Origin: Macrostomum lignano
Taxonomy: Eukaryota
NCBI GenBank assembly: GCA_002269645.1
Contig: NIVC01000300.1
Location: 186,001 to 250,000 of the forward strand
Direction: 5' to 3'
Length of the DNA stretch: 64,000 nt
The notes under the pieces were generated by a model that saw only the letters and a list, made by a program, of their open reading frames with translations, did not search any database and was not told the DNA's origin. The position numbers and the translations under genes were made by a program. Below, one piece after another: positions 34,170 through 61,500 of this stretch. Position 1 is the first letter of the stretch. Each line of letters starts with the position of its first letter.

Positions 34170-37100
34170 TCAGTCACCCAGCCTCTCCACTGAGAGGTCC
34201 TTGAAGTAGGCGACTCCAAAGTTTTGAGTTCCAACGGCAGCCCAGCCGGACGGCAACTTCTCCCAGCCGGAAGTGCCATTGTAGGCCAGCTTGTGGTTGA
34301 CTCTCAGCTGCACGAAGCCCTTCAGCATCTGCAGGGACACCGAGATCCAGCTGTCTCTGGCCAGCCCGTCAAGCACGGATGAGTACACCGCCTGCTGCAT
34401 GCCTGCGGGTTGTTGCATCGGGACAAAAGTACTTAACCCAAAAAGACTTTTTAATAACCTTTTGTTTTCTCTTCCATGTCTCCATGCTCCGAAGCAACCC
34501 ACCATAGTCCCTGGTCATGAGCAAATCAAGCAGCTCACCATAGTCCCTGGTCATGAGCAAATCAAGCAGCTCACCATAGTCCCTGGTCATGAGCAGTACG
34601 GTGCAGTATCCGCCACAGCCGGGGCCCTGCAGCGGCAGCAACCAGGCAAAAACGCCGCTAGAATGCACCATCGATGCGCCAGCCTGATTGGCCTGCAGCC
34701 CCAGGTAGACACCGGTGCTGGCGTTCGCCCAGATGGGCAGCCACACTGAGCAGTTGATTCTCGAGTCCGTCCAGCTGTAGTCTCCAATCAGGGCGCCAGG
34801 CCTGGGGAATCGGGGATAGCAGGTGTCAACTGGCGGCTGCGTCACCACCTGCGCCATGGCTCGCTTGCCGTCGGGTGCGGAGCGAACCTCCCAGACGCCG
34901 GCCTGAGGTGCAAGGTAGCGCGGCTCCTCCTCATCGCGCAGCTCTGCCACGGTCAAGGAGATGAAAGCGGGGATCGAGGTTGGAAATCAATATTCTGATC
35001 AACTTTGACGAAATCTGGTTGCCAATCTGAGGGATACCACTGAAGGTTACGCAGCCTGTGCTCGTGTAGTTCAAGCGCATGGACCGGTCTTTCATCATTT
35101 TCGCACCTAACCGTCAGTGTGGAGCATCTCAAAGCTTTGTCTAGCTATGGTCTTTGCAACCAAACTTGCAGCCAAACTTGACTGGATTGACCTACTCTTG
35201 GCATGGAACTCATGAGAGCAACGACTAGCGGGCCCGTGTTTCTCGAGGGCCCGACATCGAGGGGCTGGCCGAAATACAAGAAATAACAACTGATAAGCTT
35301 GTAAATTATTGCTCTCGTCTTTCTCATTTTGTTGAAGTCGTCAAGGCTTGTCCGACGATGAACCAGAGATCCAATTGATAAAGGATGCATCTGGCTTGAC
35401 CAAATCCCAAACCATAACCTGAACCCTACCCTAACCCTAACCCAGATCATCGGCAGTCTAATGATGGTATTCTTATTGGCCGTTAGCAAGAACTCCGCAC
35501 CATTGATGTCCTCTCGATAGACATCCGGGAAGAAGGTCTCGTTGGTTGGCGCCTTCTCGTTAACGATCTGAGACGGATCGTCCGTCGGTCCCGCGTCGTC
35601 CATCGTCGTCAGGGTCAGAATGGTGTTCTTGGTCAGCGTCAGCTTTAAAGTGCCGTTAACGACCTGGAATGTTACAACAAGTTTACAAAGCAGATGAGTC
35701 TACTGTAAATAGGAAGAACTGCACAAACCGCACAGAGTTTTTTTGTCATCTTACCGGAAAGTCCGGCAGCTTCTGAAACAGTCGGGCAGTTCGGTTGCCG
35801 TAGTCGAACACGGACTGACGCACTCGGAACCTCGTGATTGACGACTGCATGTAACAGGGAAGCGGTGCGAATTCAAACATTATTTAGAAATGATTTTATA
35901 AAGAATATATGCAATATCACTGCCAGGTGTTGTAAAAATTTAGGGTGTCATCCGTAAAAATTCGCGAGTTTACGGATAACATGTCAGGGTGTTTCAGAAT
36001 GTCAGGGTGTCAAGGTGTCAGGGTGTCAGGCGAGAAACGAAGAAACAGCTGGGACCACATTTCTGAGAGAAGATCGTCTTTGCTATTTGATTCTCGAGAG
36101 CAAATTTGCTGTCAATTGACTGAGAAACCGATTTCCGCTGATTTTATTGAGTCATTGGCCTCCTTTATTAATACCTAAGGTTATTAGATAAAATCTCTTT
36201 GACCGATTTTAATATCCTTAGATTTTCATTGACTGTTGTTTGATTTTTGGTTGATTGATTGATAATCCTATAGTAACGGATAGAAACACAGATTCTGATT
36301 CTGCAATTTCTGGACGAAGACGTCCCTTTTGGAAGACCTGCCTGCTGTCAGAAAATTGATGACATTGTTGACTTCCAAGCTCGAGAGGGATAAAGTAAAG
36401 ACTTCGACACAATTGAACCGTTCCTTGAACTACGCATAAAATCACTCTCGTATCCAACAGAGTTCAGAGCAACGGGAGAACTTACTACTTGTGATCTCAG
36501 GCGCCAAATAAAAGCCTAAACGAAACCGCGACATTAAGTGACCCTTAACCGTGTTTTCAGGCAGTGTAAAATGTGTGCCTTGGGTTTTTGGCCCTCGTAG
36601 GCGTCTCGGGTCTTAAGCGAGCGGCAAGACCCAATTTTACGTGACCGCGCGCTTGGAATCATAAGTAGTATATGTTTCTTTGACGCATAGCCGATTTCCT
36701 TATGGCGAAATACATAGTAAGTACAGCCCCAAAAAATGGCAGAGTCCGAAATTTACCGTGCACGCAAACTAAATTTTAAGCAATGAATTAACCAATTAGC
36801 TGAACTACTTTTACGCAAACACCTGTCTATCAACCTAAACTCTTTCCGCAATGAATGCAGCTAATTACAAGCCTAACCAAAATTCAATTTGACACAAAGC
36901 TTATTTCGCGTAATAACTTTACGCATTAAATTCTTCTTTTCAAGCAGTATTGTATATTTCAATTAGATACAAACACAATTTGACGCACAAATTAGCGAGT
37001 TTACAAATATTGAGGCAGCACTCGTAAAACAAAATTGCGTAATTTAGCATACAAGTATCGAAACGAACCAGTGCGACTTATTTTCCGTTTAAAAACGCTT

Positions 37101-40100
37101 CGAATAAAACACTCTAGGTTTCTTCTGGTAGTCAACTTATGAAAAATAAAAAAATTACCCAAAATCCGCAACTTCCACTCTGTGGGTCTTGGGTAGCAAA
37201 GCGACTATAACACCAATTTTTCGAATTTCCACACTCCTTTCCTAACCATTTTGCTATTCTTGGCAATGGTACTAGACCAAGAGAATCAAAATATTCACCA
37301 AGTCGTTTGCTACCGCCACCTGCTCGATGACCATAAACCCAAACGCATGCCCAATGTTTTCCGGGCAGGTTGGAGACGTCAGTATTAACGATAAAAAAAT
37401 AGTCTTTACCATCTAAAGGTAGGCGTTTAAGTCCACCAACAAAGTTTTGAGGAAAAACACCAAGAAATACAACATTTAAAAAATGTGCGCACAATTTCGA
37501 TACAACATTTCGAAAGAAGCGATCCGTTACTCCACGCTCTAGGATAGAATCAATTACTTCCATACTGTGCCAGGAACAATGTCGCGAAGTTCAGTCAGTT
37601 GCAGTTGCTTGTCAAATATCCCTCCAAATACGACGTTGTACACAGTACTAGTTGCAGCATTGAAGCGTAACTCTAGTTTTACATTTCCTTCCTTATACAG
37701 TTGCACTCCCCGTCCAACACCAGGTTCACTTCCAAGACTGAATGCAAAAATTGAGTAACCATTGGCATACTCTAGCATATCAAATCCAATATCTCGTCCC
37801 TGTAGGTAGATTCCAAGCTGTTGTAGCAAAAAATTATACTCTGTCACACAGTCATCTCCAAAGTTTGTCTGCAGCGGACGCGATGGCACCGAGTCTCCAT
37901 TCACAAACACACCAACGCTGCTCACATTTGCATGCTCAAAGTTGAACGGATTAGTGTCCATGCTTCCATTGAATGCCTTATTGCTTACGATTGCCATCAA
38001 TAAAAGTCGTGGTACTCCACTAGGAAACAAATTTTCATGCGTATGGCTAGACGATCCTCGGGGTATAGTAAACGTACCAAGGCTTAGACTTCGGTGCGGA
38101 TATAATGCATTGTGACTTTTAAGTCCATGAGCATGTGCACTGATAACACTCGGCGAGGGTTAAACAAACCGCAATTGCTTGTAAGACATGGCAGCTTGCA
38201 TCAAGACGGAGTCAATTGTGCGCTCCGACTCGAGTTCGATTTTCTACGTTGGAGAGCAGTCTACAACCACGACTGGTTCGTCCTGCCAGTCTCGATCTAT
38301 TGCATGGAAACCATCAATCGAGTGTACAAAATGGTACCCAATTATATTGCAATCCAAGGCTCCAATGGAGCTTTTTCATGGAATCACAGAAAGGCCAGAG
38401 CTCGATCATCCGTCTTGCAGACACGACTCTCGCGACGCAGTAAGTGTCCAATTTCATCCAGACAGCTGTGATAAGGAACTCTTCCACTCTCTCCGGTGAG
38501 TAGCATATACATACATGTTTAATTTATACAATTAATTATAGGAAACTATAATCATAATTTATATAATGTTTTGCAGTCAAGTCGAAAAAGGTCTATCGAC
38601 CAAGTTGAACGATATTCAAGATGTTCGAACCTTGGCACGACTAACAAAACCAGCTCATCAGCATGCGAACGACGTCCTCGAGTTTGTGCCTCAACAATCG
38701 TACCTACCAAATGACAGTGCAAGCAACGAGCTTGTATTGTCCAAAAGGCTGCCTCGTCTGGCGCATTAAATTCGCTGTGCGCTCTCTAACGCTCATAGAA
38801 TCTTCCGACAACATGTTGCAGCACCTTGGCATGTTCAAGGGAGTGCTTGCACACGTAACTGCGACCAAGCCAGCAATTAGAAGCAGGAGTCCGTCCCCAA
38901 CGTCTACCCGTGACCAAGAAGAAGCAGATGAACAAAGCCGGCAGAATTCAAGCCAGGTGACGCCTGCCAAGTCACCTGCAAAGCGTCGGTCTACCACCAC
39001 CGTATCGAAGAAGTCGACTCCATCGAATGCAGCGCCAGCATCTATTGAACCGGTGGCTAAAAAGCAAGTTCGCAAACGCAGCGGTGCAAAACAGCAAAAC
39101 AATTCTGCCGAAGCTGGTGCAGATGGCACAGACTGGGTGGAGGCTCCACCAGTAAAGATCTTGGTGAGTACACCTGCCGGACCCTCTGGAACCCGGGTGG
39201 CGTCCAAGGAGACAGCATTTTTAAAGCGTGCTGCTGCTGCTGCGGACGCTACTACAGCTAGCGTGTATTCATCGGACGATTCGTACAGCAGCTCTGATGA
39301 TGAGTAACAAATTTTTTGACTAATTTTATCCAAGTTTTAACTAACTTATTCCACTATATTTATCAAATTTTTGGCTAGGAAAACAGTATTATTTTTAGGG
39401 AAAAGCTCAAAATATTTTTTGCTACTCTTTGTACGCCAACCAGGTTTAATATTAGAATTAACAATAGTATAGTCTTGTTAAACTTTTCTTATTATTTATT
39501 TTCCGTTTTAGCGACTTGTCCTATTAATAGTTACTGCGAGTCTGAAGCTGCGTCCGTTTGAAAAATTTGATTTAAAGCAGGCCAAACAGAAGCTACAGAC
39601 CAGAAACCGGTTTTGCAAACTATTCCTAAGCCGACCAACAATGCTAAAGACAATTTATTCAAACGCTAAAATCCAACTTTATCCAGCAGGAAAACTAACT
39701 ATACGAGTATATGGCTGTAAATCAAATTCTCAGATAGTTTCAGTTTTACGATTTATCAACGATACTATTAATTGTGTAGATTTTGATTTGATACAAGGCT
39801 TTATGTTCGATACGCTCGTAGTCGAGCTAGGTGCACACAATGCCGCGTGCACAATGTCAAATCTGCAGAAAAAAAGTTCAGCAATCAAGCTGAGCTGCAT
39901 GCTCACTCGCATGGTGATTGTTTTTCGCCGGAACGATTACTGGCCGGATCACTGCAAAACCTGATCGAAAACTCACCAGATGGGTGGTCCATCACTTTGC
40001 GCGAGTCAGCTCATCGTGGTCGGGTAAATTTTGTCGAATTTACTCCCTCTCTTGAACAACAAGACAGCAGCAGCAGCTCTGGCGAGTTACTTCCTGGCGA

Positions 40101-43100
40101 GTTGATTGCATCTTTAAGAGGACTAATATTTAAAATATTGGAAAAAATTGGCTCACCCAGTTTATTAATAAGAGTCTGTTTTCACTTGAAAGTGACACTA
40201 TTTCGACCGAAAGCAGACGACGACGACAGCGATGGCTCGAGCAGAGAAGAGATCATTTCGGTCTATTTTAATACCAACATTGCGAAAATATCATTTGATG
40301 AGACGATTGCAAACAGTGACATGCTGTTATCTCCCGAGGCCGACAATGACTGGTTCGCACGCGCTACTAATCAGCTGTTAATAAAATTGACAATTTTTAA
40401 ACTCGAGGTAGTAATTGGCAATATAGAGCAATCGAGCAGCTAGACTTGATGCTCTGCGTTTATTGCAAAAGCCATGCAAGCACACTGTCAACAAATACGT
40501 CCCACGATGGTGTGGCGGCGGCGGCGGCGGCGGGCGCGGGGAGTCCGGTCCAGTCCGGTCCTGTCCGATTAAACAGCGGGCGTTTAAAGTTCCAGTCTCA
40601 ATCGGGCGCAAAGCTGGAGCAGTACTGCTTTTAAAGCCGCACAGAGCAAATCAGTACGACTCAATATCGCTACTCAATATTGGCGAGTATATTTCATCCT
40701 TGTGTGCAAAATGCGAAAAGGAAAGACAGCTACGTGCGATGGATGAGAGAATTTAATTTTGGTCGACATGCTAATGGGCCAGCTCGCCATTCAAGTAGAT
40801 CGTACAAAACATTTTGCCGACGCAATCCGAGAGTTAGTCTACGAGTATTTGTGTGGGATCACGAGACCAAGACAAGCCCATTATTTTACTCGCAAAGAAG
40901 CAAATATGATGGCGATTGTTATTTTGCAAGCTGCCTGTTTGTGCCGCGGTATGACGATTTTGAATTTGGCCATTATTTACCAATTCGCAATTTGAACCGG
41001 TTATTGAGCAAGCGAGGAAAACAGCGACGCACTGCACGGAAGAAGATTATGGTCGAGCTTGTGCAGCTTGGAATCAGTTCGAGTGTCGAAATCTTCGAGA
41101 TTACACAACAGCCTATTTGTTGCTTGATGTACTGCTGCTATGCGACGTCTTTGAAAATTTTCGTCAGACTGCGCTGCGTGAATATGGTCTCGATCCGACT
41201 CACTTTTTGGGTGCACCAATGTTTAGCATGGTAGCCTGCCTGTTGCGGGTAGACGAACCAATAAAATTGTTTACCGACGCATCTATGTATGCCGGAGTTG
41301 AGTCCTCCATTCGAGGCGGTTTCAGTTTTGGAACGCGACATGTAACGACGGCCAATAACCCGAGTGTAGCAGAATACAGAAGCGAGTTTGATCGACTTGA
41401 TCCGGACTTTGAAAGCTTGCGAAAAAATGCACCATATGGAACTTATCTAGCATACTTGGACGCTGATTCGCTCTACTCAAGCTGCATGATTCAACCTTTA
41501 CCAGTTGGCGATTTTTTATGGCTATCACGCGATGAAATTGGGAACATTCCAACTGATAGTGTGAGTGCAGATTATTTGGAAAATCCAAGTGTTAAAAGTC
41601 GACTATTGGATTGGTTAGACAAGTTTTGTAAAGACGAACAAGGAGCAATGTTCACTGTGGATCTATATTATCCTCGCTTCTTGCCTGACTCGACAGCAGA
41701 TCTTCCGCTTGCAATTGGTCACGAATTAGTTGGCGAAGACCGACTTAGTGAACAGATGAAACTGGACTGGTTTTGCCTTCAAAGAGAACTCAATCCAGAT
41801 CGTTTTGAAAACGCAACAAGCTATGGTGATGTGAAAGCTTTCAGCAGCTCGACGCAAAAATTGATTGGGTCTGTGCTTCACAAAAAAAGTATGTTGTGCA
41901 TCATCGAGCTCTTCGATTGTATCTAGAATTGGGAATGCGCGTAACGCGTGTTTACCGCGTAATTCGATTTACAGAACGAGCAATTTTGCGATCCTATATT
42001 GAAAACAATATTGAGCGGCGTAAAGTAGCAAAAACTGAATTCGAACGCGACTTTTTCAAAGTGCTAAACAATGCTCTTTTCGGAAAGTTTCTGCAACGAG
42101 TTCGCGATCGACTCAATTTCCGCATGTGTTCAGAAGCTGAAAAATTGGAGAAATATGTTTCTCGAGAAGATTTTCTTGACGTAGTAATTTATAATGAAAG
42201 TCTGGCAGGAGTTAGCCTCGCTCCGCGTCGTGTTGCGCTAGACAAACCGATTATAATCGGTGCTGCAATCCTAGACATTGCAAAGACTCTTGTGTACGAC
42301 TTTGATTACAATCATGTTCAGATTCATCATTCACAAGCAAGTGCTGGGGTACTCGCAGGAGATACTGATAGTCTTATGCTGGCTCTAGTCATGCGTAAAC
42401 CGGACGAGACTCCTTACGATACCTTGTTCAAAGATTTGGCAGAAGAAGGTTTGCTAGACACGAGTAATTGATTCACCATCGCATGCTCTGTACTCGACAA
42501 AGCACAAGGGTCGACTTTTGGCGTGTTTAAAGACGAGTTTAAAGGGTGTGTACCACTGGAACTGGTATTTTTGCGACCAAAAATTACTCCTTCGTGTATG
42601 CCAATGGAACTATAGATCAAGTCTCGCGCTGCAAAGGTGTCTGCAAGACTGTAGCACAAAGTCTAAAGCATCAAGACTATTTGAGAGTTTTGCACAAGCG
42701 ACAACTTGTGTTTTCGCGCATGCAGTCGATTCGCTCTCGAAAACAGAAAGTTTTTTTAATGCAACAAAGAAAACTTGCACTAAGCTTTTTCGATACCAAG
42801 CGATCTTGGACAAGTTGCATCGATTCGCTGCCATTTGGTCACTAGCGCTTGACCAATTAACAATATGCTCTGATCTCTTTTGTTGTACAAAGTATAAATA
42901 GCATGTTATAGAAGACTGTAAGCCATCATTAATTTTCATTGATCGTAATAATTTTTATAGTTAGATTCGTATGACTAGGTTGTAGTGAACGTAAATGTAA
43001 TTGCTAACGTTCATGTTTCAAGAAAAAGAAAAAAACTTTTTTAAACTCTCAGTTACAAGAATCGACAACATGAATGCCGAGCAGCAGCACCAACAGCAAC

Positions 43101-46100
43101 AGCAGCAGCAGTACCAACTTTTAGTTGAACCCCCTGTACGAATCGGCAACAATTCCGACCCGAAAAACTGTCGGCTCGATTGGTTACGATCTCTGTGCAG
43201 GCGTAGATGGTACCATTCCGGCCTACGAGTCCCGCAGTGTACGAACCGAACTTAAAGTCCGGTTACCGGCTGGTACTTATGGCAGGATTGCGGCACGATC
43301 AAGCATGGCTCTGCGCGGTATCTTTGTTGGCGGCGGCGTAATTGACCCCGACTATACAGGGGAAATCTGTATAGTTTTGTTCAACTACAGCTCGGAGGAT
43401 TTTGATTACTATGCCGGGCTAAGTATCGCGCAACTCGTTCTTGAGCAGGCTGTGCTTGCTTCAGTCTATGTCACTGAAGTCGACAACTCTATTCGGATGA
43501 TTGAGCCGCCGACCAAGCGGCGCGGTTTTGGCGGCTTTGAATATAGTATTTCTTTTGCTGTAATGATTGACCATTTCGGGTCTTGTATTTATAGCAAGCA
43601 TTGCATGCTGTTTGTGAACTAGTAAACAAATTTAATTGTTGCGTGCTGATTAAGGCCAAAGGTGGCATAAGTTTCTAGGGTGGGTTGCATGATTAGGTCT
43701 AATTTTACGCAATCTAGAAATTCCGAACTAGCAGAGGATCAGTCTAAACAGAAACCTAACTAGCAGACAATCAATCTAGAGACTGAACTAGCAGAGGATC
43801 AATCTAGAGACTGAACTAGCAGACAATCAATCTAGAGACTGAACTAGCAGACAATCAATCTAGAGACTGAACTAGCAGACAATCAATCTAGAGACTGAAC
43901 TAGCAGACAATCAATCTAGAGACTGAACTAGCAGAGAATCAATCTAGAGACTGAACTAGCAGACAATCAATCTAGAGACTGAACTAGCAGACAATCAATC
44001 TAGAGACTGAACTAGCAGAGAATCAATCTAGAGACTGAACTAGCAGACAATCAATCTAGAGACTGAACTAGCAGACAATCAATCTAGAGACTGAACTAGC
44101 AGACAATCAATCTAGAGACTGAACTAGCAGACAATCAATCTAGAGACTGAACTAGCAGAGAATCAATCTAGAGACTGAACTAGCAGACAATCAATCTAGA
44201 GACTGAACTAGCAGACAATCAATCTAGAGACTGAACTAGCAGACAATCAATCTAGAGACTGAACTAGCAGACAATCAATCTAGAGACTGAACTAGCAGAC
44301 AATCAATCTAGAGACTGAACTAGCAGACAATCAATCTAGAGACTGAACTAGCAGACAATCAATCTAGAGACTGAACTAGCAGACAATCAATCTAGAGACT
44401 GAACTAGCAGACAATCAATCTAGAGACTGAACTAGCAGAGAATCAATCTAGAGACTGAACTAGCAGACAATCAATCTAGAGACTGAACTAGCAGACAATC
44501 AATCTAGAGACTGAACTAGCAGACAATCAATCTAGAGACTGAACTAGCAGACAATCAATCTAGAGACTGAACTAGCAGACAATCAATCTAGAGACTGAAC
44601 TAGCAGAGAATCAATCTAGAGACTGAACTAGCAGAGGATCAATGTAAACTAAACTAACAGAGGATCAGTCTAAACAGAAACCGAACTAACAATCAATCTA
44701 GAGACTGAACTAGCGAACAGTCAATCTAAAAAAACTGAACTAGAGTAGGTGATTATCTTACCTTGTTTAACATAGCGCTAATTCCTACTGACGTGATCGC
44801 TTCATTTGACTTAAGATGCAAGTCGAACAAGTAGTGTAGTGTAGACTTGGTTTGAGTTATTGAATATTTTCTGTATCAGTGTGTTCGTATATATAGTATA
44901 AAGAAGCATGTTGACGTGGTTGTTGACATAGTATCTGTAAACCAGCTGCTCAAGTTGGTGCGAAAATGCTATAGATACTCAAGAATAGATCATTTTACCA
45001 TCTTTCTTCAAAAGGGTGGTAATATTCGCAAGTTTTCAATATTTCAGTAACACTTGAAATGTGTGAATAGCTTTGGAGTAAATTTGTCTTGAATGGAATC
45101 CTTTGAAGTGTGTTTGTGTCACCATTGCTAGAATCGGTTACTTGTATTTTGGACAGGTGGATATGCAATTCGTCTGAATAATCACGTTGCGTAAAAGATA
45201 TTTAGCGTGCACATGGAATTTCAGACTGCGTGCACATGAAATTTCGGACTCTGCCATTTTTTGGGGCTGTACTTACTAAGTATTTCGCCATAAGGAAATC
45301 GGCTTTGTGTCAAAGAAACATATACTACTATCATACTTTGGGTACTTTGGCACAAGAGTCAAGACCCCTGTACCACATGCGTTCAGATCAGGGTAAACAA
45401 CATCAATTACCAGTCCATCCGTGAACTTCAGCACCACCGTCTGCACATCGGCAATCGGATATTGGGGCATCGAGTAGAAACAGTGCGCGTCGTGTGGATC
45501 CATTGTCTCGATCACGACAGTCACGTGAGCAGCATCTGGCGACACGTAGGTTATATAGCTGCCGTTGCCAGGGAGGAGGCCGCTGCCGTTGCCAACGGGA
45601 AGATAGCGCCAGCCAGGCTCGGAGAAGTGCGTGTGGTGCGCTGCGGGATTTGGGAGTCGGTTGCGGTGCAGTGAGGTTTGGGTGTCGTTTGCTAATCCTA
45701 GTATGCATGTAAGTGGCTTAACGATCGTACTTTGCTTCATGTCTGTCGAGTTCAAGATGCTTCAAGATGCTCACCTGTCACCCAGATTGGCGGTTTCACC
45801 TGATAGTTTCCGGACCAGGGCTCTCTGGCCGACATCAGGCTGTTATCCGAGTAGGGAAAACCACGATAGTAGCTGGTGAGCAGGTTCCAGGCGATGGCAC
45901 TGTAAACACAATTTTTAAGAAAATATTTCATGCCAATTCAAAAACAATTTAAAAATAATTCAAATTGGAAATTCACTGGTGGCACAGGTTAAAGAATACT
46001 TAAACTGTTGAGACTGACGTGCAGGGGGGGTAATTAAACTGGAGAGACTGGGGTGCAGGGGTAATTAAACTGGAGAGACTGGGGTGCAGGGGTAATTAAA

Positions 46101-49100
46101 CTGGAGAGACTGGGGTGCAGGGGTAATTAAACTGGAGAGACTGGGGTGCAGGGGTAATTAAACTGGAGAGACTGGGGTGCAGGGGTAATTAAACTGGAGA
46201 GACTGGGGTGCAGGGGTAATTAAACTGGAGAGACTGGATGGAGGGACAATTAAACTGGCGGGCAGTGATGCCTCACCCCGACAGGTTTCCCATCACGAAT
46301 GGTTCGTTAAGAATCCTAGCCCAGCATCCTCCACCATTGATGTCGTTGTAAGCGCTGAACTCCTCCGAGCAAATCATGGTCTTGTTGAGCAGCTTGGCCT
46401 CGGGCGGGCTGTCAGCGCCTGGGTAGTGGGCGCCAAGAACGTCCACAGCGTCGTACAGCGCCTTGTTTGCCGCGGCCGCCTTCAGGAAGCCGACATCCCA
46501 CAGGGAGTCCGTGGCCACGATTCTCGTGGATGCGAAGCCGCTGGCGTCAAGAGCTTTTCGAAGCATCTGAGTTTGTTTTTGTGAAAAAAAATCGTGACTG
46601 CTTCCTAGTAAAGAAACGTGTGAAAACGCACAAAATGTTCAATCTTACTACTCAATGAAGAGTAGTTGACGCTAAATATAGTTCGAACGGACTACCGGTA
46701 AAAAATGATCTCGTGTAAAAGATTAAATTTAGAATCGATTTTAATATATTATGCGGAATTCAAACGGCTGAGTTTTAGCCACAGACTTTCCAAATGCTCA
46801 ATTGATTTCAAGAATTCCCCAAATTGAAACGCAAAGAAAGAACTCGAGGAACCATGGAGCAAAGAGTATCTTGTTAAAAATACTCTGTGCAGCCTCACAC
46901 CACTGACGCTGCCGCCATGAGACGGTTATTTGGCGCCAAACCAAAGACGCAGACGCCCACAGATTGCATCGCCCGACTTCGATCTACAGAGGAGCTGCTG
47001 CAGAAGAAGATCGCCCACCTGGAGAAGAAGATCGAGCAAGAGACGGAAACGGCGAAGCGACTGGCGTCAACCAACAAAAAAGGCGCGCTGCAGGCGCTGA
47101 CCCGGAAGAAGCGCTACGAGAAGCAGATCCAGCAGCTGGACGGCACTCTCAGCACGCTGGAGTTTCAGCGCGAAGCCCTGGAGAACGCCAGCATGAACCG
47201 GGAGGTCGTGAGCTCGATGAATACCGCCTCGGAGGCAATGAAAACTGCCAACAAGGGCGTCGGCGTAGACGACATTAACAAGCTGATGGACGACATTCAG
47301 GAGCAGCGCGAGATTGCCGAGGAGCTCACTAACGCCATCTCGGCTCCATCCAGCGGATCCAGCGAACTGGACGATGACGAGCTGATGGCGGAGCTGCAGC
47401 AGCTGGAGCAGCAGGACAAGGTGCCGCAGGCTGCCGAGCCGTCACTGCAGCTGCCCGAACCCGTGCGCGACCCGCTGCCCGCCGACGGTGCAAAGAAGAA
47501 GAAAAAGCAGAAAGACGACGAGGACCTGGAAAAGCTGCAGGCCTGGCTGGCTTAGAGACCGGCGTGGTGACGCGTTGAAAGTTTGGCTTCTTGCATCCTC
47601 TGTTCAGCATTTTGTTCAGGAGTAAATCGACAATTTTAGTTTGAATTTTGCGTTCACCTATAAATGACTGCCATTTTGTCACCATGGTGTTTAAATGCTT
47701 TGCCATTTAACTGGCAAGGGAAGATCTGTTAAAAAAATTGATTTGTGCGATGTACTTTTTGAGAGGCTTTCACAATGTGATTTCACTCTGTAAATATTGC
47801 CAACTCAACACTTATTTTTGAAGATCAAATTTGGCAGCTGCCAACGATCACGCATGCATGGAGAACTGAAGGCCGCTGGACGCGCAAATCCTGCAAAAGT
47901 TACTCTGGAGGCCGCGGTTCTTCTACATTCTCTAAATTCCTATAAATTGCCTTGATCTCACCCTCTAGACTGGTTGTCGCAACTTTCTTAGTCATTTCTT
48001 CAGTTCACCGCAAAGATACTAAATAACTTGTTGTGCTACTTAGGCACATATACGCTTGTACTTAGTAAAACAGCTTTCTACTTTCATTTCAGTAGTAAAG
48101 AAGAATACATAAGCTATTTTATAAAAATAAAGGCAGCCAATAAATGACTTCGATAATTTTAAAAGCCCAAGCTTGCAGGGGTAAACAACTTGCTAATTGG
48201 TTCAGTAATAATGTACATTAGCCAGTCCATTGAAATGTACATGGCAGCTTTAGGCTGGAATTCCGAGAAAGGCAATAAAAATTGGGGGGGGGGGCGGGAG
48301 GTAGTGTGGAAAGGCGCGGTTGGAGGGTTTAAGCTGTGGGTAAGAGCCAATGAATGAGCCTTGACTTTAAAAATACATTAAAATGCTTCTGTTTAACTTA
48401 CTACTGAACTGAAAGTAGCTTACATGTTAATGTGCTGAGTGGCCCATCTAGTTATACCTTTGTGGTTCACCTTTACTTGTCGTTGTTGTCTCTGTTGTTG
48501 TCTGTCTAGTTTATTCTTATCTCTCTCTCTCCCTCTCTCGCTGGCTTTTGATTATATAATTAATTTTTAGCTTCACCGCCCTCCAACAATACTTTGACAG
48601 TTTTTCTCATCAAACTTGTGACTGCAGAGTGCGAAAGAACATTGTGTACTTTAAAAATTAAAATTAAAAAAATAGAAAGATTCTTACAATAATGTAATCC
48701 GCATTCCATGGACGCTCATTCCAGATCTACAATGGACGCGATAGAATCGATAGCTTCCAGCTAGTGTGGGTTGCACTGAAAGGTAGATATAGCAATCGGA
48801 GTTCGCTTACACCCAGGTACTCCATATGAAGCCCGTGCACAGCCTTGGCGCCCTTCACCCAGGTCATGATGTAGCGCAGCAGGTTGCTGGAGTTGTTATA
48901 GTACGGGTCCAGGTCCGGTCCGCCAATCCAGCCGGGAAAAACCCACGGCAGTCCGTAGAGTTTTATATCATAGTTAATCTGTGGGAAATTTAGAGAAAAT
49001 TATTCGATACATAAATCCTACTGTAAGTAGAAATTTTAAAAAATTCACGTTTCAGACAGGATTGCGCGTAAAAAAAAGAATAGCCAAATTATCCGCGGAC

Positions 49101-51030
49101 AGGCAATTACTGATAAGCCCGGTTAGCTCAGTCGGTAGAGCATGAGACTCTTAATCTCAGGGTCGTGGGTTCGAGCCCCACATCGGGCGAAGTTTTTTTC
49201 TGTTGAATTTTTAAAAATCTGGGATGAAAATTTGAAGTCATTTTCAAAGTAGTCAAATGCCAATTAGCATATTTTTAAGGAACGCAATTTTTAAAATATA
49301 TTTTTCGAATCAGTCCGGCGTTTTTCACGCACAAGATTTTGGCATATCAATTAGAGTGAAAGTTTCTAGTGTCGAATGCTGTTAAAGATTTTCAGCACAT
49401 ATGCATTTTCTATATTTGTCACTGCTGGTAATTGAGATAACTATCGATCTGGCAAGATATTCAACATTCCCTGCTACTGTATGTCTTCGTGTACTTCATA
49501 CAGAGTGTAGGTCAAACGGTCAAGGTATGTTGAAAAGCTAACCTTATAATGGGGACAAGCTTGCCCTGTTGGAGTCGTTGCTTTAGACGATAGCAGTAGA
49601 AGAAAAGGTAGATAAGCTTTTTGCCAGGGAAGTGATGTGGATGTCACGAAGGGTAGAAAGGATATAGACGAGCTAGGGATCGAGTGAGGTGGGTGCCACG
49701 GGGGTAGAAAGGATAGAGAGAAGACGAGCTGGGGAGTGAGGTGGGTGCCACGAGGGTAGAAAGGATAGAGAGAAGACGAGCTGGCGAGTGAGGTGGGTAT
49801 CACGAGGGGTAGAAAGGATAGAGAGAAGACGAGCTGGGGAGTGAGGTGGGTATCACGAGGGGTAAAAAGGATAGACAGAAGACGAGCTGGGAAGGTGGTT
49901 GTCACGAGGGGTAGAAAGGATAGAGAGAAGACGAGCTGGGGAGTGAGGTGGGTATCACGAGGGGTAGAAAGGATAGAGAGAAGAATAGCTGGGGAGTGAG
50001 GTGGGTGCCACGAGGGGTTTAAATGACTGAGAGGAGGCAGCTGAGGAGTGAGGTGGGCACTTGAAGTGCTCATGTATAGCCAAACCTTTTTAACATCTTT
50101 CATCAGCGACCACTCGTAGCCGCGGTCAAAGCTGACATCGTCGGCTGTGTGCATGTGCGATGACTCGGTGCCATCGGTGCTCTGCGAATCGCCACCGATC
50201 TCCACTTTGAGGATCTGCAGGGCGGCGCCAAATTTTGGCTGTTTGGGGTGGGGAAGTGAGAGAGGTGAATTTTGTACACGAACTCCAATGAATTGTAAGT
50301 TTGAAGCTGGAAGACTCCAGCCGTTCAGTTATCGCAAGTTAGATATTACCTTAAAAAGGTATTTCAGAATTTGGTTATATTTTCTTGGAAACTTGGCAGC
50401 GTAGGAACTCAGCAATTTCGACGTTGCCTGCAATTGAAACACAAAAAGTATGTCAAGTTTGTGTCAAGTTTCTGGACAGATTGAATGTGAATAATATAGG
50501 ATTTAAAGCAAAAAGGATTAAGCTTAACTCCCGTAATTGATCGCCAATTGAAAAAGAGCGGGGAGTGGGGTGGGTGTCCAAGGGGTAAAAGGGACGGAAA
50601 GGAGACGAGTGAGGAGTGGTGTGGGTGCATAGAGAGTAGAAAGGCCAGAAAGGAGACGAGTGAGGAGTGGGGTGGGTGCATAGAGGGTAGAAAGGCCAGA
50701 AAGGAGACGAGTGGGAAGTGGGGTGGGTGCATAGAAGGTAGAAAGGACGGAAATAGACGAGTGGGGAGTGGGGTTGGTGCACAGAAGGAAGAAAGGACGG
50801 AAAACTCATGAGTACTAGCAGACGACACAATTATAAATAAAAAAGCCGCCACTCACTCCCCCACCGCTGATGCCGCCGATGCCTTCAAACTTTTGCGCCA
50901 AGCCGCCAGCAAGGCTGAATTTGATCTCGGCGGCTGGTGCTGAATTCGGCAGCGACAGAGCCTGTATGCTCAGAGCCAGTAGGGCCATCAAGATCACGGT
51001 GACAGCTGGTCTATGTGGAACTCGGATCAT
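34170..51030 (-). CDS. GALC: Galactocerebrosidase (galactosylceramidase, GH59); 12 exons, 703 aa
   Basis: Minus-strand exons 51030-50857, 50427-50350, 50238-50086, 48978-48811, 48726-48688, 46566-46277, 45899-45775, 45640-45411, 35844-35755, 35663-35501, 34943-34575, 34402-34170. All GT-AG and phase-compatible, 2112 nt. Motifs [54 protein letters not shown] (acid/base Glu), GAHYPG, CSEEFS (nucleophile Glu), AIAWNL, EPWSGNY, C-terminal GWAAVGT match the GALC family. N-terminal signal peptide. The start Met is inferred. Confidence 0.95.
34501..34596 (-). repeat. 36-bp tandem triplication of the GALC exon 11 end plus splice donor
   Basis: ACCATAGTCCCTGGTCATGAGCAAATCAAGCAGCTC x2.7; reads LLMTRDYG|gtgagc on the minus strand, with donors at 34575, 34539 and 34503. 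Confidence 0.9.
36664..36763 (+). repeat. Left terminal inverted repeat of the Polinton
   Basis: Begins AGTAGTATATGTTTCTTTGAC; its reverse complement matches 45230-45329. Confidence 0.95.
37132..37563 (-). CDS. Polinton/adenain-like cysteine protease (PRO), 143 aa
   Basis: [14 protein letters not shown] (His), GEYFDSLG (Asp), [12 protein letters not shown] (oxyanion Gln, catalytic Cys). The C-terminus may be slightly truncated. Confidence 0.85.
   Translation of the reverse strand: MEVIDSILERGVTDRFFRNVVSKLCAHFLNVVFLGVFPQNFVGGLKRLPLDGKDYFFIVNTDVSNLPGKHWACVWVYGHRAGGGSKRLGEYFDSLGLVPLPRIAKWLGKECGNSKNWCYSRFATQDPQSGSCGFWVIFLFFIS
37554..38159 (-). pseudogene. C-terminal half of the Polinton major capsid protein (PY, double jelly-roll)
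   Basis: 202-codon open frame [21 protein letters not shown]...[34 protein letters not shown]...PSRPLQ...[10 protein letters not shown]...GNVKLELRF, recognisable as Maverick MCP. Preceded by an in-frame TAA (38160-38162); no N-terminal half found. Confidence 0.8.
38663..39307 (+). other. Uncharacterised ORF inside the Polinton (basic S/T/K/A-rich, acidic tail); probably the last part of a disrupted gene
   Basis: 214-aa frame ending [12 protein letters not shown]. Upstream fragments (38112-38769) and an 81-nt GT-AG intron-like AT-rich segment at 38496-38576. Confidence 0.4.
39641..42845 (+). pseudogene. Protein-primed family B DNA polymerase (pPolB) of the Polinton; frameshifted and internally deleted
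   Basis: Fragments 39847-40443, 40680-41030, 41117-41926, 41896-42471, 42546-42845. Motifs [31 protein letters not shown] (ExoIII), [13 protein letters not shown] (A), [10 protein letters not shown] (B), GDTDSL (C), [13 protein letters not shown]...PFGH. Several frame switches and internal stops (e.g. TAA at 42469-42471). The 5' boundary is approximate. Confidence 0.9.
43070..43622 (+). pseudogene. dUTPase (trimeric type) carried by the Polinton; one frameshift near the N-terminus
   Basis: Motifs [39 protein letters not shown] at 43070 (MNAEQQ...QLLVEP) joins the dUTPase frame only if one C is removed from the C5 run at 43130-43134. Confidence 0.88.
43750..44640. repeat. 28-bp minisatellite AATCTAGAGACTGAACTAGCAGACAATC inside the Polinton
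   Basis: About 32 units, with degenerate copies at both edges (43725-43790, 44640-44740). Confidence 0.95.
45230..45329 (-). repeat. Right terminal inverted repeat of the Polinton
   Basis: Ends ...GTCAAAGAAACATATACTACT, followed by the TSD ATCATA. Confidence 0.95.
46024..46260. repeat. 31-bp minisatellite GGGGTAATTAAACTGGAGAGACTGGGGTGCA in GALC intron 6
   Basis: About 7 units. Confidence 0.92.
46917..47555 (+). CDS. CHMP4: Charged multivesicular body protein 4 / Snf7 (ESCRT-III), intronless, 212 aa
   Basis: GCCGCCATG Kozak context. MRRLFG...[14 protein letters not shown]...[39 protein letters not shown]...[13 protein letters not shown]...DDDELMAEL...[10 protein letters not shown] is typical Snf7/CHMP4, including the C-terminal ALIX-binding-type helix. 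Confidence 0.95.
   Translation: MRRLFGAKPKTQTPTDCIARLRSTEELLQKKIAHLEKKIEQETETAKRLASTNKKGALQALTRKKRYEKQIQQLDGTLSTLEFQREALENASMNREVVSSMNTASEAMKTANKGVGVDDINKLMDDIQEQREIAEELTNAISAPSSGSSELDDDELMAELQQLEQQDKVPQAAEPSLQLPEPVRDPLPADGAKKKKKQKDDEDLEKLQAWLA
49117..49189 (+). tRNA. tRNA-Lys-CTT: tRNA-Lys, anticodon CTT
   Basis: 73 nt; acceptor stem GCCCGGT/ATCGGGC, A box TAGCTCAGTCGG, anticodon loop CTCTTAA, B box GGTTCGAGCCC. Confidence 0.98.
49193..49199 (+). terminator. RNA polymerase III terminator (T7 run)
   Basis: TTTTTTT begins 4 nt after the tRNA 3' end. Confidence 0.8.
49625..50060. repeat. Purine-rich ~50-bp minisatellite in GALC intron 3
   Basis: GGGGAGTGAGGTGGGTATCACGAGGGGTAGAAAGGATAGAGAGAAGACGAGCT-like units, about 7 copies. 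Confidence 0.88.
50565..50800. repeat. Purine-rich ~48-bp minisatellite in GALC intron 1
   Basis: GGAGACGAGTGAGGAGTGGGGTGGGTGCATAGAGGGTAGAAAGGCCAGAAA-like copies. Confidence 0.8.
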
Positions 51031-55250: not shown

Positions 55251-55511
55251 GCCAAACCAAATTGCAAGTCGTGGCTAGATTTTTTCTAAGCTGTTAGGGC
55301 GGTCTGCAGTCCCTTTCCCCCTTTTTCGGTTGGGCACTGCGAGCTCTTACAATGTCAGTGAAGAGGGGATTCGGACGGGCCTTAGTGTCTCCCCTCTACG
55401 TGACCCGTTTCACACCCAGCTGGCCTGGGTGACCTGTATGGAGGTACAACCGTTAATTTTTCGGATTCTGTTTCTACATAATTAGTTTCAATCATAAATT
55501 GCAGGTCATTC

Positions 55512-58500
55512 ATGGCAACCGACAAGTTTCCTTTGGAACTAAAGGTTCAATCCCGGCCAAACAACCTGCATGTGACCGATGTTTCAATCATCAATTCAGG
55601 CATTGTGATTCAAACACACTGTTTAAATAATGAAAAAATCTACTTGAAATCAAATAAAGCCTTTGTTACTAACCTATTCAACCCAGACACTAACACCTTC
55701 AAACGATTTGTCATAGCAGATTCGTTTGACTTTGAGATTTTGAGCTTGCTACCAAATGACTACACAACCAAGCTAGTGGTCGTAGCTGCGAAGAAAAACG
55801 AATACTTTCTGTTCTTCTACGATCTTCAATCTCACACGCCGTGGTCGCCATTTCTTCTAGAGCGCCTGCACGAAAAGCCATTAAAAACTGTATGGATCAA
55901 CGAGAGCACCGTAGCCATCATTACAGCGAACTGGCTGTACCACTGCGATGCCCGGCTAATTGTCCGACCGAATGAAGAGGACAAACAGCTAACAGTTTCC
56001 TTGGAGCACAAGCTCAATTTGAAAGCAGTCTCGGGCTACGAGATTTGCGAATCTTGTCAGTATGGCCTCATGCTCGCAGAGGACACCGCCAATCCTATTG
56101 TCATGTGTTTGATTAAGTTTGATCTAGACAAGCAGAGCTGTCACAAGATAATTAAGAGAGTTGATATCTTAGGAGCAACATTTTCCTACAAAGATGACGA
56201 CGGCAAAATCCCCATTATTCAAGCACTAGCCGTCAGCGAAAAACAGTGGATTTTTTGCACCATTCAGCTCGATGGGGACCTGAAAGAACTAGAAAATGAA
56301 AAACTGAGTGTCGCAGGGAATGAGAAAAACAACCCCAGAAGTGTCCCCACGGACTGGACACTTCCTCCGATCGGCTATCAGCCAATCAAGATGATGGCAA
56401 ATCCTGGAAACGAAAGGTGCTACCTGGTGAATCCAAACGAAGAACCAGTTCACTTTTTTAAGTTCAGCTTCGAGCATACAGAGTCCGAGTCGGGCAGTAC
56501 TGCACCAGATGACTTGGATCTTCCTGTTGGATCGTGTCAGGGTTTATTCGTTAATCAAGCGGATGGTCATCTCTCTGCCCTACTGAAGCACACAGATACT
56601 TCCTGGAGCATTTTGTGCTCTCGGTCGGCACAATTTAGCGTGAATCCCCATGAGGATACTGATCAAGAAATAAACTTGAATCAGAACCATTCAGCTTGCA
56701 CTCGATGGCTTCCGTTTGCCGACTATTCAGGAGGAAATCGCGGCTACTTAGCTGCGCTGGAGATCAGCTTTAGTCACCAAAGACTGGCTTGCTGCTTTTC
56801 TGCAAACGACTGTCTGATTCCTCCAAAGTTCTTCGAATCGGAATTATTCCTAAACTTTAATGATAACCGAGCTCTAAAAACAAGTTTACCGCAAGACATC
56901 TGCCCCCAAGCTGAGCGTTTCGGAGTCACCATTCCAAAGCTATATTTGCATCCACACGGAGATTCACAGAAGTCACCAGACTTCAAGCAGATTCGGGAAG
57001 CAGTCCCAAAGCTAGAAGACATGAAGCTTGTCAATACGCAGACAACTAAAGAGCGCATATCCAAGATACTTCTAATGGTGCATCGCAATGAACCAGTTCT
57101 TCTCGAAGGCGATCCGGGAACAGGAAAAACAATGACAGTTACCTACTGTGCCGCTCTGTGCAACGCTCCTCTATTGAGATTTACCCTTGGCTCTCAAACC
57201 ACAGTGGCAGATTTGCTAGGCTGCTTAAAGCCCTCTGGCACCGGCCTGCGCATTGAGCTCGGCGTACTGAGTCAGGCAGTGAAAGATGGCTACTGGCTAT
57301 TGCTGGAAGAGGCAAACCTAGCGAGTGATGCAGTGCTTAGGGTTCTCGAAGATGTTCTGAGCCATGGAGTTCTTCAAATTCAAGACAGCATGTTAGCTGG
57401 CCAGCCAGAAGCGTTGAATGGATGCATCAAATACCGACAGCATCCAAACTTTCGCCTCTTTATTTGCCAGAATTCAGTGCATAGCTATGGCTCAGGAAGA
57501 AATTTCCTATCACCGTCTTTTTTAAGCTATTTCTTAACGATGAACTGGGATTCAATGCCACAAAGTGAATGGCATGAGATAGCCAGAGAACTTGTTTCTG
57601 AGAGTGACAAGGCCGAAAAACTTATCACTGTACACCAGCATTTAACAAAAGAAGGCATTGTGCAGTCAACGTGGACTCTTCACGATCTTGTACACGCATG
57701 TAGTCTGCTAGAGAAACAGGATGCAAGTGAGGTAGTTATGCAACTGCTGTACTTGTACACCCAGTGGATGGATAGCTCGGACGAAGATAGTGCCAAACAA
57801 GTACTAAAAGTTTTAAACGAAAATTTTGGAGTTTCACCTTCAACTAAAGAAACGCATAATTTGGATGAGTCTCAAAAAACCATTCAGTTCTTAACAATGT
57901 GCCAAAAAAGTGGCCGCTCTGCCTTGATCGTAGGTCAGCATTTCTCCGGGAAGTATGAAGCGATCAAAACTTGGGCGAGACAATCAAGTATGGAATTGAT
58001 TGAGTATTACTGCAACGCCGAGACAACAATCGAAGACATTGTTGGGCAGCTCATGCCTGTGGTGAGTCATTTTAATACATCTTTGCGTCAGTGATTCGTG
58101 ATAACAATTTAAGAATATCAAATCAAGCACTCTTTGCGCACCTCGCTATTACTGTAGGTCTGGGTGGGATATCGACCAATGTTTTCAGAACAGTTCTTGA
58201 CTGGTTTGACATTTTTTCTAGCAAATGAAATGAAAATTCATTAAACGATTTAGTTAATTGTTAGTTTATCGCAAAGAAAACATGAAATATAAAATACCGT
58301 TGTAAAAGAAAAAGTACGAATTATTAAACTTTTTGTGTACTTTGTGCAATTCATTTATCCATAATACTACACACTCTAAGTTATAGTTCCGAGCAAAATG
58401 CTTTTAAAGCTGAATGACAGCAAAAGCATAACCACATGAAATGCACCTCTTTCATTCACACAGGAGTCAGAAAATCACCAACGAAATGCTAGTACCGAAA

Positions 58501-61500
58501 AAAGACAAGTCCCGAAATTCATTTGGAAGGATGGACCACTTGTGGCTGCCATGAAGCAGGACAAATGTCTGGTGCTGCGATCCGTCAACCAGTTAGACCT
58601 TCCCCTGCTCGAGGAACTGAGCAGTGTTATCGACAGCGTCAAATCATCACGATTTCGGTTGAATGGTGAGCTGGTTAAACCAAAACCGAAGTTTTGTATT
58701 GTGGCTACCTACAGCCGCTCCGATCCAGATGAAGCCGCTGACCTGCCTGCAGCTTTTCGAAGCAGATTTGCCAGTTTCGAGCAAAAAACTGAAAGCTTCA
58801 GTAGAAAATTAGCTACAATTCCTAGCTATGGAAAAAGCTCGACAATTCTTTTAAAAGCGCTTAAGTTAGCAACAAATTTCGAAGATACGAACCCTTCCGC
58901 TGGTCAAATATACCAGCTATTGCGAGGGATTCAAAGGCTTGACAAAGTGACAAAAGGCAGTCCATTCCTTTTTTCACTTTTCTCCGACTCCAACATACAA
59001 ACCGTTGTTGACAAATTTGCAACCCTTCTGTTTAGTTCAGCTGACCAAGACTTCAGCTTTCTCTACAAATCCTTGCCCGATATGCGAGACGAGAAATGTG
59101 GTTACCATCTCGGGGAGTCGAGAAAGAATATTTTCTGCCTGCTAGCAATAAGCATGGCCATGGGAATTCCAATTGTGCTGGAAGGCAACTCAGGAGTCGG
59201 CAAAACATCGCTAGTAAAACTTGTCAGCAGCAAAATTAACGAGGGAAATTACGTTCTTCATTCGTTCAACAAAGACACTTCCATATCAGACTTGATGGGC
59301 CACTATCTTCCAGCGGAGTCTGGCGTTCGCTTTGTGGAGGGAAGTCTCCGAAAAGCCATTCGCACAGGAGCAATTTTCATCGCCGATGAGTTTAATTTGG
59401 CAACCAGTGACGTCATTGGCTACTTAACACCATTGCTGAGTGGTAGCCATCAGTTTCGTTGCGCTGTGACGCAAGAAGAACTTCACGTTAAGCAGGCCTT
59501 TGCTTTTGTGGCAACGCAAAACCCACCAGAATATTCAGGGAGAAACGTTTTGCCTGAGTCCATAATTCAGAGGTTTTTGAAAGTCTCAGTTCCCGATTAC
59601 AGTGACGAAGAAATTACAGAAATTCTTAATGAGATAGTGAAATTTTCTCAGAAAAGAGATGTCTCCTTTGCAAGCACATGGTCAAAATATAATCCCTTCA
59701 GTTCTCGAGAAAAAAATCTGCTCGAAAAAATCAAAAGCATCGTGAACTTGCTAAGACAGCCAAATCGGTTGACTTTGTGCCTTCGAAGCCACATAAAGTT
59801 AATAAACAGACTGATAAGATCTGGAAGCCTGAAGTCCAGTCAGTGGCTTGAAGAGGCCGAATTGCATGCTGAAGTTCTCTTTGGTTCCAGTGAGCCTTTA
59901 AATTGCGCCATTAAACTTGAAGGCAAGGATTGGAAATTCATGATCGGGAATGCTGTTACCAAGACAGAAGTGAAGCTGAGTGCTTTGAAGACTAGCGAGC
60001 CAGAAAACCTATCGGAAAGCGCTCGTCTTAACTTATGCAAGCTGGCATTTGCTGTGGCTCACTGTGAGCCAGTAGTCCTGGAGGGGCCGACCAGCTACAA
60101 GGGCACACTAGTGAGGCAGCTATCCGAGATGGTGCAGTTAACTAAACGATGCGACTCTCTGACCACACTATATTTGTCTGAGCTAACGGAAGCCCGAGAC
60201 TTGCTCGGAGGTATTGAGCCTCATTCACCGGAGTCTTTCTGCGAAACCGTAGCCAGGAAGGCGGCCAAGGTTTTGTACAGCGAATACAAAGAAACTTTGT
60301 TCAGAAGAGATAAAAAAGAAAAGCAGCTGACGTCTCTTCAAGACATAAAAAGCTTTTTTCAAGTTCTTTGTAAACATTTGAAAACTCTTTTTAGTCACCC
60401 AGAGGCTTTCAGGTCCTGCAATGCGCGTGAATTCTGTGAAAAGATTTATGCTGAAGCTTACAAGCTTCCTGGTGATCCAAAGCTGATCTCTGATGCCACA
60501 TTTGCGCATGAAATTATGCTTCAGTTGATGCCTTCTGCTGACAACTGCAACCAAATTTTCCCTTTTTGTGAGCGCGGAGTCTTGGGAAACGTTCGTTTTG
60601 GTGGTATTTGCCTGCTGAGAGACGTTAACTTAGCTGATCAAGCGGTGGTGGAGAGGTTAAATTCTTTGACTGACCTTCATCCAACACTGCAGCATCCAAA
60701 TGGCGTTTCTATCCCGCTCCACGTCAATGAAAGTTTCAGAGTCGTCGCAACTGTGTCTCACCCTTTGACAACGCAAATTTCTAGGTCGATGCGTTCTCGA
60801 TTCACTTTCATTAACGTCAGCAACAAAGACGTGTCCGTTGATATTTCAAAAGAACTGACAGTATCTTTAGAACAAAAGATTTTAGGTAAAGTTTATGGAG
60901 AAAGGTTGCGGGAGGATGCTAAGCAGAAAAACATGGCGCTTACTGAATTCATGCTAATTCAAATAAAGAAACTTCTTGATTTGCCAATGGCTGAGAATTA
61001 TAGTTCATACGAATTAGCAAAAAAGATAGTTTTTGAAAAAGGCTGTTCCTTATGCAGCAATCCTGAACTTCAACCAGCTTTGTCGCAACTAAAAATAAGC
61101 GATTCCGGCAGAACATACACGGACGATATCGGGCTTTTGTTTCCTGGTGAAATTCAAGTTGAACAGTTGGGTCTTACGATGACAAAAGATGGATTGGAGG
61201 TGCTTAACTATTTGCTGATCGGTCACTACTCTGGGAGGGTAATTAATTTAGTCGGCCCTCCAGGTACTGGTAAAACAAAGCTTGTGCAAGTATTCGCCGA
61301 GAAGATGCTGCAGAAGACTTTCATTAGAATTTCGTGCTCAGACGACCTAGCACAGGACGATCTGTTCGGTGCGTATCTACCGAGTATAGAAAAGGGCAAG
61401 ATGAGCTTCAAAACAGAGTTGGGAACTATTTTAAAAGCAGCAAAGTCTGGAATTGGCTGTGTGATCTTGTTCGATGAAGTAAACTTGGCACCAACCGATG

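Follow-up and report, generated by a model that had tools for sequence, protein, structure and literature searches.

The flatworm Macrostomum lignano carries a Polinton/Maverick family that now probably spreads mainly as a 14.7-kb form lacking most of its polymerase gene, pPolB, and that may well borrow this enzyme from a few polymerase-bearing copies. One member of the family lies in intron 8 of the galactocerebrosidase gene GALC, within the 64,000-nt stretch analysed here (the window; contig NIVC01000300.1, positions 186,001 to 250,000, assembly GCA_002269645.1); this copy is dead and likely spliced out. In the single genome of this laboratory flatworm, copies that still have the polymerase coexist with a very young form that lacks it, mapped to at least 17 sites and with empty alleles, and with a dead copy that is older and provides a time marker. 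The coexistence of these copy types makes helper dependence testable.

Probes from the two family ends each gave 40 scored places, of 68 and 72 candidates. Because four contigs join ends of different sites, likely through mis-assembly between near-identical copies, copies were tallied as sites rather than contigs, and all counts are lower bounds. Among the ends examined we found 21 flanking hexamers, 20 of which occurred at left as well as right ends: one marks GALC, two mark pPolB-bearing copies and 17 mark copies without pPolB, while the 21st belongs to an older relative. The 14.7-kb form is defined by a single shared 3,162-bp deletion in pPolB. Its joint was spanned at 30 of 40 scored places (98–100% identity), corresponding to the 17 sites, and was present in three of four runs, from three studies; the ends, AA..AA, are not those of an intron. 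Outside GALC, family pPolB was present at only 3 places (10/10 candidates scored), or 2 sites, compared with at least 17 for the polymerase-less form. Contig depths in run X1 (170–200 for the family, 171 for the joint, 46 plus 13 for pPolB and 21–22 for the GALC flank) agree with the assembly counts but were set aside, as was a 3,255-nt pPolB contig at depth 76 in the spliced run X12, considered as a hint of transcription, since depth is neither copy number nor level.

Fourteen polymerase-less copies, from 14 sites, differed from one another by a median of 0.09% (maximum 0.32%) and from a pPolB copy by 3.0–3.2%. Empty sites with a single hexamer were found for both insertions tested, in 2/2 close paralogues of one and 7/7 repeat copies of the other. 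Because these paralogous places are empty with one hexamer, the polymerase-less copies are younger than the GALC copy. Together with the pairing of 20/21 hexamers, the empty sites at these two insertions argue that the insertion structure seen at GALC is not due to chance. Among 15 near-complete polymerase-less copies, 8 had all 13 frames unbroken and the other 7 had one to three breaks; the integrase frame was unbroken in 13. The form retains the capsid, protease, integrase and ATPase frames and the first 291 codons of pPolB, and its first 127 nt are identical to those of a pPolB copy. One copy carries a 1.8-kb tandem duplication in the capsid region (C877, L043–L044) and another a duplicated right end (C593, L045).

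To our knowledge, replication and movement of a Polinton have not been shown directly in an animal. Separately from events at GALC, one family member lost pPolB codons 292–1345, leaving a stand-alone frame for a predicted terminal-protein domain, and the resulting form inserted at at least 17 sites later than the GALC copy, as its duplications, near-identity and empty sites indicate. We propose that a same-family helper pPolB would copy the DNA of this form from the identical ends, and that the form's own integrase would then insert it. We regard such replication in trans as probable, and several points weigh against it. No closer parent of the polymerase-less form was found among 43 matches in the assembly. 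Because the pPolB copies are 3% from this form overall but 9–14% over the dUTPase gene and pPolB tail, they are not its direct parents; the form is a mosaic whose direct parent is absent from the assembly. The ratio of non-synonymous to synonymous divergence (dN/dS) between the two forms was 0.20, which is not assignable to the period after polymerase loss because it includes time before the deletion. When polymerase-less copies are compared with each other, 43 variant sites are replacing and 24 silent, a ratio that is only mildly below the neutral expectation and partly reflects alleles common with pPolB copies.

Polymerase-less copies might need no pPolB at all: the integrase alone could move them by cut-and-paste, after which gap repair by the host would restore the donor. 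Their mostly unbroken integrase frames, the perfect 6-bp duplications and the 17 polymerase-less versus 2 pPolB sites are what such movement would give. However, it requires none of the capsid, protease, ATPase and terminal-protein frames, all of which are kept (although the copies are too young for loss to be expected), and the mosaic segment suggests recombination between co-replicating forms; we consider cut-and-paste unlikely. A helper from outside the family, whether one of the genome's sister families or a free virus acquired by infection, seems less likely still. Across the genome, 150 pPolB matches were scored among 724 candidates, several containing frames open for 1,200–1,480 aa, sister families likewise start AGTAGT, and the direct parent is missing from the assembly, but sister ends diverge past the first 7–8 nt, whereas a same-family pPolB copy has identical ends. 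That the polymerase-less copies are assembly artefacts or segmental duplications is largely refuted and hardly credible: four contigs whose left and right hexamers differ, each hexamer recurring in another contig, suggest that some copies are mis-joined or redundant, as does the collapse of 30 places to 17 sites, but there are 17 different flank pairs with matching hexamers, the paralogues are empty and the joint recurs in three studies.

The pPolB deletion begins four residues ahead of the Cys of a motif that we read as vOTU by analogy with 10.1101/2024.03.18.585575. The probed part of the retained frame was open at 27 of 30 places. The structural model of this frame has five strands and two helices; Ser189 lies next to Gly188 where helix 2 leads to the final strand, an arrangement invariant in 12/12 alignment rows. 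In a structure search of 48,161 chains, the ten best matches were all Y-family polymerases, 4IR1 included (Z 5.2–7.2, root-mean-square deviation 2.9–6.3), mostly over the C-terminal little-finger part. The reported polinton terminal-protein signature combines a little-finger-like fold with a Ser or Tyr that neighbours a Gly or Pro, placed between helix 2 and the final strand, and 4IR1 is the structure used in that work (10.1101/2024.03.18.585575, sections 6–7). The retained frame matches this signature, also in the described order of strands and helices, with modest Z, and is predicted to be a terminal-protein domain. Other observations speak against this assignment or its importance: the model has a mean predicted local distance difference test score (pLDDT) of 64.6, Z values under 8 may reflect a common arrangement, and we found no direct match to a named terminal protein, the best being an adintovirus C2H2 protein (E 1.4e-8). 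Selection for keeping the terminal protein cannot be read from one deletion event, and the frame may be a passenger, because a helper pPolB carries its own fused terminal protein. Distant relatives of the frame amounted to only 4 matches among 1.84 billion proteins, and its best Atlas match (0.89) is a lead only. A candidate second deletion, joining a terminal-protein part to a sister-family pPolB tail (P0115), was rejected; the join occurs at no place in the genome.

The flatworm form resembles defective-interfering and satellite viruses, and non-autonomous transposons, in keeping its cis ends, lacking one replication enzyme and outnumbering its presumed helper. It differs in that its genes for capsid and integration are all kept, and any interference with the helper is putative. 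Non-autonomous and defective elements are defined in the accessible part of PMC6431247. Possible, though doubtful, is a stronger reading of the 14.7-kb form as a defective-interfering satellite Polinton, in which terminal protein and polymerase would be split as in adenoviruses, its own stand-alone terminal protein would prime, the polymerase alone would be borrowed, capsid and integrase would be its own, and it would out-replicate the helper about 9:1 in the animal germline.

Among the closest known systems are polB-lacking polintons of insects, described in section 13 of the Pannagram study (10.1101/2025.02.07.637071, accessible text) as inverted-repeat-flanked elements amplified after polB loss while complete relatives persist, with their mobilisation left open. 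The flatworm form was likewise amplified without polB alongside complete relatives. In the insect elements, however, the loss came with long interspersed nuclear element (LINE) or long terminal repeat (LTR) cargo and involved two copies or a small group, whereas the flatworm deletion is clean and cargo-free, occurs at at least 17 sites versus 2, and leaves the terminal-protein region in place. Polymerase-less spread in the flatworm is a cleaner, testable case of the question left open for insects. A terminal protein split off as a separate frame is described for adenoviruses and a polinton of the coral Stylophora (10.1101/2024.03.18.585575, in the sections available); there, too, the break falls between terminal protein and vOTU catalytic Cys, but those elements keep vOTU-pPolB as a second gene, whereas the flatworm form has no polymerase.

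The GALC copy occupies 36664–45329 of the window (8,666 bp; Table 1). A preliminary description made from the sequence alone had proposed an endogenous Polinton/Maverick virus with AGTAGT-ended inverted repeats, a perfect ATCATA duplication, protease, capsid and pPolB remnants, and a right end 81 nt from a GALC splice donor in intron 8. These features are all present: the repeats are 113 nt each with 91% complementarity (87/90 identical over the outer 90 nt, AGTAGT at both ends), ATCATA flanks both sides, all three remnants lie in the element (pPolB matching PF03175 at E 2e-6), and the exon-8 donor is 81 nt away, duplication counted. Same-genome relatives carrying pPolB, an rve integrase with chromodomain, protease, PLA2, dUTPase and a double jelly-roll capsid support the Polinton identity. 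As an endogenous virus the copy is a Polinton but not a near-complete virus; it is a dead, rearranged Polinton derivative, by itself ordinary. That description had not included the remnants of dUTPase and TBP-like genes, the inverted block, the 28-bp array or the multi-copy nature of the family.

Table 1 Features of the GALC-intron Polinton copy and adjoining GALC exons (window coordinates)
Feature	Position	Strand	Basis
GALC exon 9, in frame with exon 8	35755..35844	-	
Left target-site duplication ATCATA	36658..36663	.	flank sequence
Left terminal inverted repeat, AGTAGT start	36664..36776	+	repeat comparison
Adenain-like protease remnant, two frames	37004..37563	-	sequence comparison; family copy gives weak profile matches
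Double jelly-roll major capsid gene, C-terminal half (aa 234–440), one stop	37557..38177	-	comparison; capsid model
Block in opposite orientation versus complete copies	38172..43539	+	alignment to complete copy
Remnant of 279-aa open reading frame, no known family, with internal deletion	38566..39304	+	comparison
TBP-like gene, first ~50 codons only	39641..39796	+	comparison; family copy Pfam TBP E 2e-7
pPolB remnant, terminal-protein region to C-terminus, five pieces; stops, frameshifts, 1,151-bp internal deletion	39823..42857	+	
dUTPase remnant, frameshifted, truncated at inversion joint	43070..43538	+	profile match, comparison
Tandem array, 28-bp unit, 34.8 copies; length varies between GALC loci	43758..44728	.	
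Right terminal inverted repeat	45217..45329	-	
Right target-site duplication ATCATA	45330..45335	.	
GALC (GH59) exon 8, donor GT at 45410–45409	45411..45640	-	

Compared with a complete copy, the GALC copy retains the left 1.5 kb, followed by a flipped middle block, and the 6.1 kb between them is absent. The deleted segment held the N-terminal half of the capsid gene, the core, integrase, two open reading frames (ORFs), the penton candidate, the ATPase and PLA2; the 1,151 bp missing inside pPolB are a further difference from the complete copy, and every gene left is broken or truncated. The inversion joints have microhomologies of 4 nt and 3 nt. After an integrase-type insertion marked by the 6-bp duplication, the flip and loss at these 3–4-nt microhomologies would have followed, perhaps through end-joining repair.

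The rearrangement was common to the GALC loci as far as contigs reach. Substitutions separating the window locus from the other GALC loci amounted to 1.2% for the flanks and 1.0% for the element; the pairs of other loci that we compared were at most 0.2% apart. Because the rearrangement is common to the loci and divergence is similar in element and flanks, both insertion and rearrangement predate the split of the window locus from the others. Three subgenomes, 1.4–1.6% apart, are described for M. lignano (PMC10733133, accessible text), and the GALC-locus split appears to be of subgenome-split size. Since element divergence matches that of the flanks, the copy has probably decayed neutrally, like intron DNA, since the rearrangement. 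Selection for an inversion and deletion that removed GALC-codirectional genes and spared splicing is very improbable. In complete copies the genes share one strand, and at this site that would be the sense strand of GALC; AATAAA occurs on it 4 times versus 17 in a complete copy, and the element is found at all four GALC flanks. But the AATAAA count mostly tracks length (8.7 versus 19.6 kb), the element diverges as the flanks do and 1.5 kb of sense-facing genes persist.

The host gene, on the minus strand, encodes a GH59 galactocerebrosidase (Pfam GH59 on exons 3, 4, 6 and 8); exons 1–10 can be joined into a single open frame, AG/GT ends being present as far as exon 9, and intron 8 measures 9,566 nt. 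Contigs without introns, from two runs, have GALC introns 9 and 10 spliced and extend ~1,320 and ~1,425 nt past the exon-9 acceptor. As they reach ~1.3–1.4 kb beyond this acceptor and exons 1–8 comprise 1,257 coding nt, the element is likely removed with intron 8 by normal splicing; against this, exon 8 lay outside the stretch examined, so that the exon 8–9 joint itself was not seen. The preliminary description anticipated an empty GALC allele with a single ATCATA. None was found in the assembly, where 4/4 left and 4/4 right flanks abut the element, nor was there an empty-allele loose end among the contig rows examined for four runs (158 further rows fell outside those examined). What the GALC copy itself teaches is little more than that an insertion of 8.7 kb so close to a donor (81 nt) is likely tolerated.

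A complete pPolB-bearing copy is 19.6 kb, with all genes on one strand in the order 279-aa ORF, TBP-like, pPolB (1,411 aa), dUTPase, PLA2, ATPase candidate, penton candidate, pX-bearing ORF, 229-aa ORF, integrase with chromodomain (rve E 5e-8, chromo E 3e-7), basic core-like ORF, capsid and protease. The family capsid gave a double jelly-roll model (pLDDT 90.9, 77 sequences) whose best PDB match was the Sputnik capsid (E 1e-16), with iridovirus and PBCV-1 capsids also matched. Its homologues include fish proteins named F54H12.2-like (~30% identity), a name that we take to mark Maverick capsids. Matches of the family protease were weak (Peptidase_C5 E 0.033, African swine fever virus S273R E 0.008), with His and Cys motifs seen in the sequence. 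The ATPase candidate, a 229-aa ORF, has Walker A and B motifs and a weak Pox_A32 match (E 0.046); the adjoining 329-aa penton candidate had no match in Pfam or PHROG and Atlas look-alikes at 0.97, all unnamed. PHROGs gave no match for 8 family proteins. The TBP-like gene (L071:5860–6288; Pfam TBP E 2e-7) lies directly upstream of pPolB and is retained in 4/4 sister families checked (C4619, C1704, C1668 and C2529 stretches; 41–45% identity); the phrase 'TATA-binding protein' was not found in the Polinton papers searched.

Polintons and adintoviruses are well described (accessible parts of PMC8502044, PMC4028283, PMC8097293 and PMC6431247). The family shares with them AGTAGT inverted repeats, the 6-bp duplication, pPolB, rve integrase, protease, double jelly-roll capsid and an ATPase candidate, and its pPolB match to PF03175 and its PLA2 gene are marks of Alpha-class adintoviruses (Starrett et al. 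2021, PMC8502044, as far as accessible). It differs in that the window copy is inverted and has no integrase, ATPase or penton candidate, the commonest family form has no pPolB, TBP-like and dUTPase genes are present, and there is no named close relative. A protein with 100% identity to the family pPolB carries Macrostomum lignano as its source label. The suggestion of an undescribed lineage is modestly borne out: the closest pPolB outside the species is 45% identical and unnamed, and in a quick tree with no named reference among its rows the capsid grouped with two same-genome sister families and two unnamed proteins. The family end motif had 0 matches in viral contigs. Our literature search found nothing on these elements in Macrostomum, with Repbase, subscription papers and preprint supplements beyond its reach; one supplement of PMC8502044 gave no match, and 10.1101/2025.04.19.649669, in its accessible text, mentions flatworm Orthopolintovirales insertions in passing and may list Macrostomum elements in its supplements.

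Across the whole genome, pPolB matches number at least 150 and come from many Polinton families, several of which have many identical copies; the Polinton load is heavy and recent. In C4072 (L055), the capsid gene of a polymerase-less copy is interrupted by a nested 8.5-kb element that has long inverted repeats ending ACTACT/AGTAGT and a CTCGTC duplication; the nested element's 588-aa Cys-rich ORF resembles, by eye, the start of PolB, and it is likely another Polinton family.

Elsewhere in the window, a single-exon Snf7 gene (46917–47555, + strand; Pfam E 3.5e-41) lies within GALC intron 5, antisense to GALC, and a tRNA-Lys(CTT) within intron 3 (49117–49189). Long intronless frames of 870 and 1,032 aa at 55482–61538 contain several AAA_5 domains and are midasin-like, and positions 1–32000 hold dense minisatellite arrays with many different units.

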